Below, piece after piece: positions 3,532 to 4,128 of a stretch of 9,831 nucleotides of DNA. The translations under genes were made by a program, and so were the position numbers. Within the stretch, counting starts at the first letter, position 1. Each line of letters opens with the position of its first letter. This DNA is from a virus. Lineage: Duplodnaviria > Heunggongvirae > Uroviricota > Caudoviricetes. Under the pieces are notes generated by a model. That model saw nothing but the letters and a program-made list of their open reading frames with translations, was not told where the DNA came from and did not search any database. The stretch lies in IMG/VR virus record IMGVR_UViG_2645727901_000016; one strand, written 5' to 3'.

Positions 3532-4128
3532 ATGAAAAGTATTTATGACATAAGACGCAAAAACCTTAACGAAATCATTCGCCGGGATTTCGATGACACC
3601 CAGTTGCGCTTTGCAGAGCGGGTGAAGCGTTCGCAGAACCTGGTCAACCGGTGGTGCACTGGCATCAAAAACATCGGGCCGAATGCCGCGCGTATCATTG
3701 AAGAAGCGGCGCGCAAAGAAAAGTTCTGGCTTGATGTCGATCACGAACTGGACGCAGTACAGGCTGATATCTTTATTCCGGCCACTGAAGATGGCGAATG
3801 GACTGTAGAGAAGCAGGCCGCAGCCACGCTCAATGCCTGGATGAGAAAGAACACGGAAATGACATCCGAAAAGAAAGTTGCTGTTGCAGCTGGTATTGGC
3901 CCGGCCACAGTTAACCGGATTATGAAAGCGGAAGTCAGCACGACCATCGGTGTTCTTTCCTCCCTGGCGCGCGCGTTCGGGCATGAAGCATACGAGATGA
4001 TTATTCCCGTCGGCGCTCCTGGTGTTATCGACTACGACCACCGGATGTATGCAGCTCTGCCACAGGAAGAGAAGAACAAGATCACCTCATTCATCAACTT
4101 CGTGTTTGAGCAGAACAAAAGCAAGTAA
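3532..4128 (+). CDS. CI-like prophage repressor with two tandem HTH (XRE-type) motifs and no recognisable S24 peptidase domain
   Basis: 198-aa ORF lying between the OR-like and OL-like operator clusters and transcribed toward OL, as cI is in lambda. HTH-like segments at roughly residues 10-55 (LRFAERVKRSQNLVNRWCTG) and 110-150 (VAVAAGIGPATVNRIMKAE...LSSLARAFG). No Shine-Dalgarno upstream of the ATG. Confidence 0.6.
   Translation: MKSIYDIRRKNLNEIIRRDFDDTQLRFAERVKRSQNLVNRWCTGIKNIGPNAARIIEEAARKEKFWLDVDHELDAVQADIFIPATEDGEWTVEKQAAATLNAWMRKNTEMTSEKKVAVAAGIGPATVNRIMKAEVSTTIGVLSSLARAFGHEAYEMIIPVGAPGVIDYDHRMYAALPQEEKNKITSFINFVFEQNKSK

Follow-up and report, generated by a model that had tools for sequence, protein, structure and literature searches.

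What kind of repressor occupies the cI position of this phage DNA, and how could it be released from its operators if it does not cleave itself? A preliminary description, made from the letters alone, raised the question by reporting a CI-like protein with two helix-turn-helix (HTH) segments and no recognisable S24 peptidase domain. In the following, the window denotes the whole stretch of DNA analysed (9,831 nucleotides of IMG/VR record IMGVR_UViG_2645727901_000016). We conclude, with a probability of about 0.93, that the gene encodes Rep, the maintenance repressor of a temperate podophage of the epsilon15/SPC32H type (Uetakevirus), or of a prophage of this kind, and that this repressor escapes cleavage and is controlled by a separate antirepressor, Ant.

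The assignment starts from direct comparison with phage SPC32H, whose Rep matches the window protein at 195 of 198 residues over the full length. The substitutions are L17R, D107N and I165V, and the R17 and V165 of the window protein are common to epsilon15, in which the corresponding protein, gp38, is 98% identical. Among structures in the PDB, phmmer returned full-length Rep (5D50_A, E 6.2e-129) and, as a second match, 5D4Z, which comprises residues 92-198 of SPC32H Rep. The title of 5D50, obtained via Foldseek, is 'Crystal structure of Rep-Ant complex from Salmonella-temperate phage', and its chain E is the 86-aa product of SPC32H ant, named 'Anti-repressor protein'. At the DNA level, positions 3100-4500 of the window are 95-96% identical to the immunity regions of epsilon15, SPN1S, SPN9TCW and SPC32H, all of them Salmonella phages of the genus Uetakevirus. 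By each feature testable here, the gene is a member of the SPC32H Rep family.

This family is a narrow one and belongs to phages of enterobacteria. Among 5.8 billion proteins searched there were 44 relatives, each about 195 aa long, from Salmonella, E. coli, Klebsiella, Raoultella, Enterobacter and Cronobacter. One homologue, P0002, reads ...LFFFKQKTAYEMI... in place of the ...LARAFGHEAYEMI... of the family, the insert being KQKTAYE, which is the Illumina P7 adapter in translation (AAGCAGAAGACGGCATACGAGAT). Because the rep gene contains GCATACGAGAT at 3988-3998, the insertion looks like an assembly chimera, not a true variant. The reading frame is closed upstream by a TAA at 3475-3477, and the next start codon available is the ATG at 3532. 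This start can be considered secure because all 19 aligned family members, with identities as low as 41%, begin with MKSIY, and because the early codons vary synonymously only: in codons 2-3 the lineages differ by synonymous changes, with AGT or AGC as the third codon. The features of the locus and of the encoded protein are collected in Table 1.

Table 1. Features of the immunity region and of the Rep protein, in window positions or, where stated, in residues of Rep.
Feature	Position	Strand	Size or sequence	Basis and remarks
rep, lysogeny repressor	3532..4128	+	198 aa	ORF, homology, Pfam/PHROG, AlphaFold/Foldseek
Divergent regulator in cro/cII position, epsilon15 gp39 equivalent	3143..3376	-	77 aa	PHROG 35 'transcriptional repressor', E 4.4e-11
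OR-like cluster	3416-3430 (1 mismatch), 3446-3460, 3463-3477		three 15-bp palindromes	between rep and the divergent cro-like gene
OL-like cluster	4187-4201, 4249-4263, 4325-4339		perfect palindromes	downstream of rep
Seventh Rep-type palindrome	1269-1283		TTACCTTTTTGGTAA	between replication gene and RuvC-like gene
Predicted PR-like promoter	3412..3439	-	TTGATT-16-AATAAT	consensus scan only; overlapped by operator 3416-3430; reads into cro-like gene
Predicted PL-like promoter	4221..4249	+	TTGACA-17-GATTAT, 10/12	consensus scan; -10 abuts operator 4249-4263; predicted to drive recombination operon
Candidate rep promoter element, -10-like	3522..3527	+	TACAAT	sequence; 4 nt, then ATG
Alternative candidate rep promoter	-35 3462-3467; -10 3486-3491	+	TTTACC; TAAATT	relaxed scan; -35 inside operator O1, -10 in the TTTAAATTTA block
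Four-helix bundle	residues 4-59			AlphaFold model
Disordered linker	residues 63-88			AlphaFold model
Five-helix bundle	residues 92-157			AlphaFold model
C-terminal helix	residues 178-196			AlphaFold model

The surroundings of the gene tell the same story. With one mismatch allowed, the window contains seven copies of the palindrome TTACC-N5-GGTAA, where 0.10 would be expected, and none of 200 shuffles contained as many. Their relative placement agrees with that in epsilon15 and SPC32H. Those on the OR side stand at -115, -85 and -68 from the ATG; lineages with as little as 52% protein identity keep all three, and two persist even at 41%. The epsilon15 record lists the OL-side sites and the one of the 1269 type as protein_bind features labelled 'repressor' and leaves the three on the OR side without annotation. 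From this annotation of identical motifs we infer that Rep would bind the palindromes of the window. The layout of the immunity region is lambda-like, with rep flanked by OR/PR and OL/PL, and each operator presumably controls the promoter that it overlaps or abuts. The PR side carries the cro-like gene, a phosphatase, a DnaT-domain replication protein and a RuvC-like nuclease, and the PL side a 330-aa protein, an exonuclease, RecT and a methyltransferase. The gp39-type gene is annotated as a hypothetical protein in both epsilon15 and SPC32H.

Motifs of this kind are also found elsewhere. SPC32H has perfect Rep-type palindromes outside its immunity region at 12, 3175, 35972 and 36034, that is, near the genome end and the terminase, before the portal region, and around replication and nuclease genes, and the window copy at 1269-1283 is another such outlying site; since these lie remote from the immunity region, Rep may have more targets than OL and OR. 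Just upstream of rep, the lineages have kept the block TTTAAATTTAGTCAGTTAGGTAA at 3489-3511, which the epsilon15 record annotates as an IHF site; it holds an isolated GGTAA operator half-site at 3502-3506.

Several neighbouring genes were noted as well. The first large gene on the PL side (4499-5491, + strand) encodes the 330-aa protein, which is very rich in Glu, Ala, Lys and Arg, matches PHROG 1376 (E 5e-102) and is probably a coiled coil; epsilon15 and SPC32H have only small ORFs at its position. It is preceded by a 49-aa ORF (4353-4502, + strand; MQWKVINGWYCV...) with a GAGAGG ribosome-binding site, equivalent to epsilon15 gp37 and SPC32H_040, which comes immediately after the third OL operator and shares 4 nt with the 330-aa gene at the GTG start of the latter. 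Further along, a 132-aa ORF (5403-5801, + strand) matches PHROG 856 from residue 33 onwards only (E 1.4e-42), and its true start is probably an internal ATG (MNIKQF...) that closely follows the stop codon of the 330-aa gene. On the PR side, a calcineurin-like metallophosphatase (2129-2803, - strand; Pfam Metallophos, E 4e-15) takes the place that a cytosine methylase has in epsilon15. Neither the phage collection nor the E. coli complete genomes include a record that spans at least 80% of the window; the element is therefore to be seen as a mosaic relative and not as a deposited phage.

A separate matter is how rep itself is expressed. The preliminary description had pointed to a missing Shine-Dalgarno sequence and proposed a leaderless transcript like that of lambda cI. 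The first of these observations extends well beyond the window: no Shine-Dalgarno-like 4-mer lies within 20 nt of the ATG here or in seven of eight lineage representatives (100% to 41% identity), and in the eighth the sole candidate is a GAGG at -19, which is too distant to serve as one. The conserved absence supports the idea that translation of rep would initiate in an unusual way, and two readings of the 5' end can be considered.

According to one of them, the mRNA would carry a short A/U-rich leader of about 30-35 nt that lacks a Shine-Dalgarno sequence, it would be transcribed from TTTACC-18-TAAATT, and rep would be negatively autoregulated via O1. This could well be the case, although we would put it somewhat below even odds. 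The promoter has a score of 8/12, the same as that of the TACAAT promoter; this score is weak, the spacer is 18 nt long, and a standard scan did not call the promoter. Its position is kept in five lineages, including the one at 55%, with the hexamer ending 40-41 nt from the ATG, and the TTTAA(A)TTTA block (TTTAAATTTA) is recognisable in all eight, including the one at 41%. The conserved block is, however, the IHF site of the epsilon15 record, which could explain its conservation without a promoter.

The other reading, possible rather than probable, is that of the preliminary description, in which the mRNA is leaderless or nearly so, with TACAAT as the -10 element of a PRM-like promoter and a transcript start at the A of the ATG. 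The lambda cI mRNA from PRM is indeed leaderless and translated without a ribosome-binding site. The lack of any Shine-Dalgarno-like sequence and the invariance of both the start codon and MKSIY fit such a transcript, as does the presence of NNNAAT at -10 to -5 in six of the eight lineages, down to 52% protein identity (TACAAT, CATAAT, TATAAT, AAAAAT, TTTAAT and TTCAAT). The hexamer is nevertheless missing in the 55% and 41% lineages, and in an AT-rich region a chance xAxAAT is not rare. At sigma-70 promoters, lambda PRM among them, transcription usually begins about 7 nt past the -10 hexamer. In the window the distance from the end of TACAAT (3527) to the A of the ATG is 5 nt, 2 nt tighter than canonical, and a spacing of about 7 nt would put the start on the G and destroy the start codon. 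The -35 element is also poor (TTAGGT or TAGGTA; 7-8/12 overall), and here, too, the standard scan called no promoter. What stands of the preliminary proposal is thus the absence of a Shine-Dalgarno sequence, which is real and conserved, together with TACAAT itself; the leaderless state is called into question by the tight spacing and by the competing upstream promoter. We regard the leaderless and the leadered option as about equally likely. The leaderless one concerns the expression of rep and is compatible with control of Rep by Ant.

The route of induction in this family is known from work on SPC32H. Rep of this phage binds DNA as a tetramer, whereas its dimer form binds weakly; the DNA-binding pairs of the tetramer have been proposed to come from different dimers, and tetrameric Ant is described to bind two Rep dimers and to break the Rep tetramer (PMC9638917). 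Production of Ant follows the self-cleavage of LexA, and Ant then inhibits the repressor through a protein-protein interaction (PMC7380047, with reference to Kim and Ryu 2013). In the SPC32H genome ant is found at 19676-19936 beside tsp, the tailspike gene, about 14 kb from rep, with a perfect LexA box (CTGTATGTTTATACAG) upstream. Only two bases distinguish the deposited genomes of SPC32H and SPC32N, and one of these differences converts the CTGT of the ant LexA box into CTTT. This difference matches a LexA-box mutation (CTGT to CTTT) that reportedly made Ant constitutive in the 2013 work of Kim and Ryu.

In the window, a tblastn search with SPC32H Ant at relaxed settings found no Ant homologue (best E 0.42), which agrees with the preliminary description, and none of the five CTG-N10-CAG matches in the window has the CTGT...ACAG consensus of a LexA box. 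Both absences are expected, since the gene order of SPC32H places ant in the late region. Co-occurrence across viral contigs with a 95-100% identical Rep bears on the same point. In at least 23 of 41 such contigs, Ant is encoded on the contig itself at a distance of 17-29 kb from rep, and at least 8 more have it on another contig of the same genome, which brings the total to at least 31 of 41; these figures are lower bounds, derived from 80 of 299 Ant loci. Within 200 nt upstream of ant, CTGT-N8-ACAG is present in 75 of 78 loci (among the 80 of 299 listed). We infer that the window's own element likewise carries ant. The IMG/VR contig IMGVR_UViG_2645727810_000025 is 99.97% identical to the window over 3.6 kb; it is neither among the 80 of 299 Ant loci listed nor among the listed matches to the LexA-box/ant-leader pattern.

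The intergenic region between ant and the tailspike gene holds a further motif. In 64 of 78 ant loci, the 200 nt preceding ant include a Rep-type palindrome, which precedes the LexA box by about 40-50 nt; the SPC32H copy is at about 20013-20027. This placement suggests that either the ant promoter or the divergent one of the tailspike gene may be a target of Rep as well as of LexA.

The architecture of the protein was examined with sequence profiles and a structure model. In a Pfam scan of the whole protein, HTH_3 (PF01381) reached 34.9 bits (cut-off 23), its best stretch being residues 109-150, and a weak YdaS-type HTH appeared at residues 25-61. Scanned alone, the middle segment (70 residues) again matched HTH_3 above the gathering score of 23 (E 6.7e-6, 26.5 bits, residues ~105-150), the N-terminal 90 residues gave weak sub-threshold matches at ~19-61 (HTH_3 E 0.12, 12.9 bits; YdaS_toxin E 0.019), and the last 49 residues had no Pfam match. 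The N-terminal part does match phage repressor profiles, namely PHROG 5736 (E 1.7e-9, residues 4-73) and PHROG 12107 (E 2.9e-6). The AlphaFold model is all-alpha with a mean pLDDT of 73 and contains no beta-rich domain. In Foldseek its C-terminal part superposes on 5D4Z with a TM of 0.76-0.83, and the matches other than SPC32H Rep (5D50 and 5D4Z) are all XRE-type HTH proteins or domains (among them C.AhdI, ClgR, the DdrO N-terminal domain, SinR and the lambda cI N-terminal domain).

This agrees with the published organisation of SPC32H Rep, in which a DNA-binding domain (DBD) at the N-terminus is followed by a middle dimerisation domain (MDD) and, at the C-terminus, by a tetramerisation/Ant-binding domain (CAD), with F187 and F190 as residues of the tetramer interface (PMC9986798). 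Neither phenylalanine varies among the 19 aligned family members. The predicted layout of the window protein is accordingly an N-terminal DNA-binding HTH domain (~1-60), a flexible linker (~63-88), an HTH_3-like dimerisation domain (~92-157) and a tetramerisation/Ant-binding part (~160-198). The double HTH of the preliminary description is therefore right as far as Pfam, PHROG and the model recover two HTH-like segments, but in the published architecture DNA binding resides in the N-terminal domain only and the middle segment is the MDD. The stronger HTH_3 match thus falls on the domain published as a dimerisation module, and the published DNA-binding domain is the N-terminal one. An internal duplication was also considered: BLASTP of residues 1-71 against 91-160 gave no alignment at E up to 100, and since the two bundles are without detectable mutual similarity, the double HTH is not a recent duplication.

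A bolder extension would combine two of these observations. The rep transcript might be leaderless throughout the family, starting from an unusually close -10 element (a 4-nt discriminator), and the middle domain may in addition retain a second DNA-reading role at extra palindromes, including the one by the ant LexA box. The middle domain looks more like a canonical HTH_3 than the accepted DNA-binding domain does, and T126 and R129 are invariant in its 'recognition' helix. We consider this combination unlikely. If its DNA-reading part were true, Rep would be LexA's partner in the control of its own antirepressor.

The profile search and structure prediction suggested in the preliminary description as checks on the missing peptidase gave a consistent answer, with HTH_3 above threshold, Peptidase_S24 absent, and an all-alpha fold in which a C-terminal S24 domain is absent as well. 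Peptidase_S24 had no Pfam match at E up to 10 in the whole protein or its separate segments, none of the 44 homologues has a precomputed S24 match, and no S24 peptidase structure is among the Foldseek matches. That the protein is a classical LexA/lambda-CI-type repressor whose S24 domain has diverged too far for sequence recognition, as its cI-slot position in a lambdoid-style immunity region and an incidental Ala120-Gly121 dipeptide might suggest, has a probability close to zero, because the ~40 residues after the second helical bundle are too few for S24 and because the model is all-alpha, fits 5D4Z in its C-terminal part and shows neither an S24 fold nor a Pfam S24 match. A hidden S24 domain is ruled out by the solved structures, Pfam, the model and the fold search, and the window protein is not an S24 repressor.

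Taken as Rep, the window protein would work as follows. Its N-terminal HTH domain would read the 15-bp TTACC-N5-GGTAA palindromes, and because these overlap divergent early promoters on both sides of rep, Rep would shut off both early operons. The middle HTH_3-like domain would dimerise the protein, and the C-terminal strand-helix element would join two dimers into a DNA-binding tetramer. Lacking an S24 domain, Rep would stay uncleaved during the SOS response. DNA damage would instead inactivate host LexA and thereby derepress ant, an 86-aa gene product encoded outside the window, beside the tailspike gene. Tetrameric Ant would then bind the C-terminal domains of Rep, split the tetramer into dimers and free Rep from the DNA. 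Non-cleavage, LexA control and tetramer disassembly are reported in the SPC32H literature and would apply here by analogy. The preliminary description had likewise favoured an antirepressor or another signal over RecA-stimulated self-cleavage; control by an antirepressor is the published behaviour of SPC32H Rep, matched here at 195 of 198 residues.

That deduction from raw sequence was right, but the answer was already known: Rep, its structure, its antirepressor and the link to LexA have been published for a protein differing at three residues. The small additions made here are the unannotated operators on the OR side, the family-wide absence of a Shine-Dalgarno sequence, and the Rep-type palindrome by the ant LexA box in most relatives. 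The practical value lies in annotation, since the window can be labelled as an immunity region, belonging to a Uetakevirus phage or prophage of the epsilon15/SPC32H type, and induction of its element would depend on an ant gene elsewhere in the genome.

The window Rep can be compared with several known systems. SPC32H Rep/Ant shares with the window the length of the protein, the position of the gene, the flanking operator palindromes and the divergent gp39-like gene. The early genes are mosaic, in contrast, and the window has the metallophosphatase and the coiled-coil-like 330-aa protein where SPC32H has others. SPC32H Ant is said, in the work by Kim and Ryu in 2013, to be structurally distinct from the antirepressors of Sipho- and Myoviridae. 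Epsilon15 gp38 resembles the window gene in its palindromes, annotated as repressor-binding, and in the IHF site just upstream of the gene; it differs in that the three OR-side sites found in the window carry no annotation in the epsilon15 record.

More distant parallels are found in mechanism. The repressors of the Gifsy prophages (PMC7380047) and coliphage 186 CI with Tum (PMC3121763) are described as uncleavable repressors with a small SOS-induced antirepressor, although they have, as far as tested, no detectable sequence relationship to the window Rep. The C-terminal strand-helix element of SPC32H Rep has been proposed to share the 'TetDloop' fold with Rco of the Bacillus plasmid pLS20 and with the tetramerisation domain of p53; Rco also combines an N-terminal HTH with a partner antirepressor, Rap, whereas Rep differs from Rco and p53 by an extra middle dimerisation domain and by a tetramerisation element without sequence similarity to theirs (all PMC9986798). 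With lambda CI and LexA, finally, Rep has in common the genetic position, an N-terminal XRE-type HTH, operators on both sides and higher-order oligomers. Unlike them, the window Rep has no S24 domain or Ser-Lys dyad, and by analogy with SPC32H it would be inactivated reversibly by the binding of a partner and not by proteolysis.
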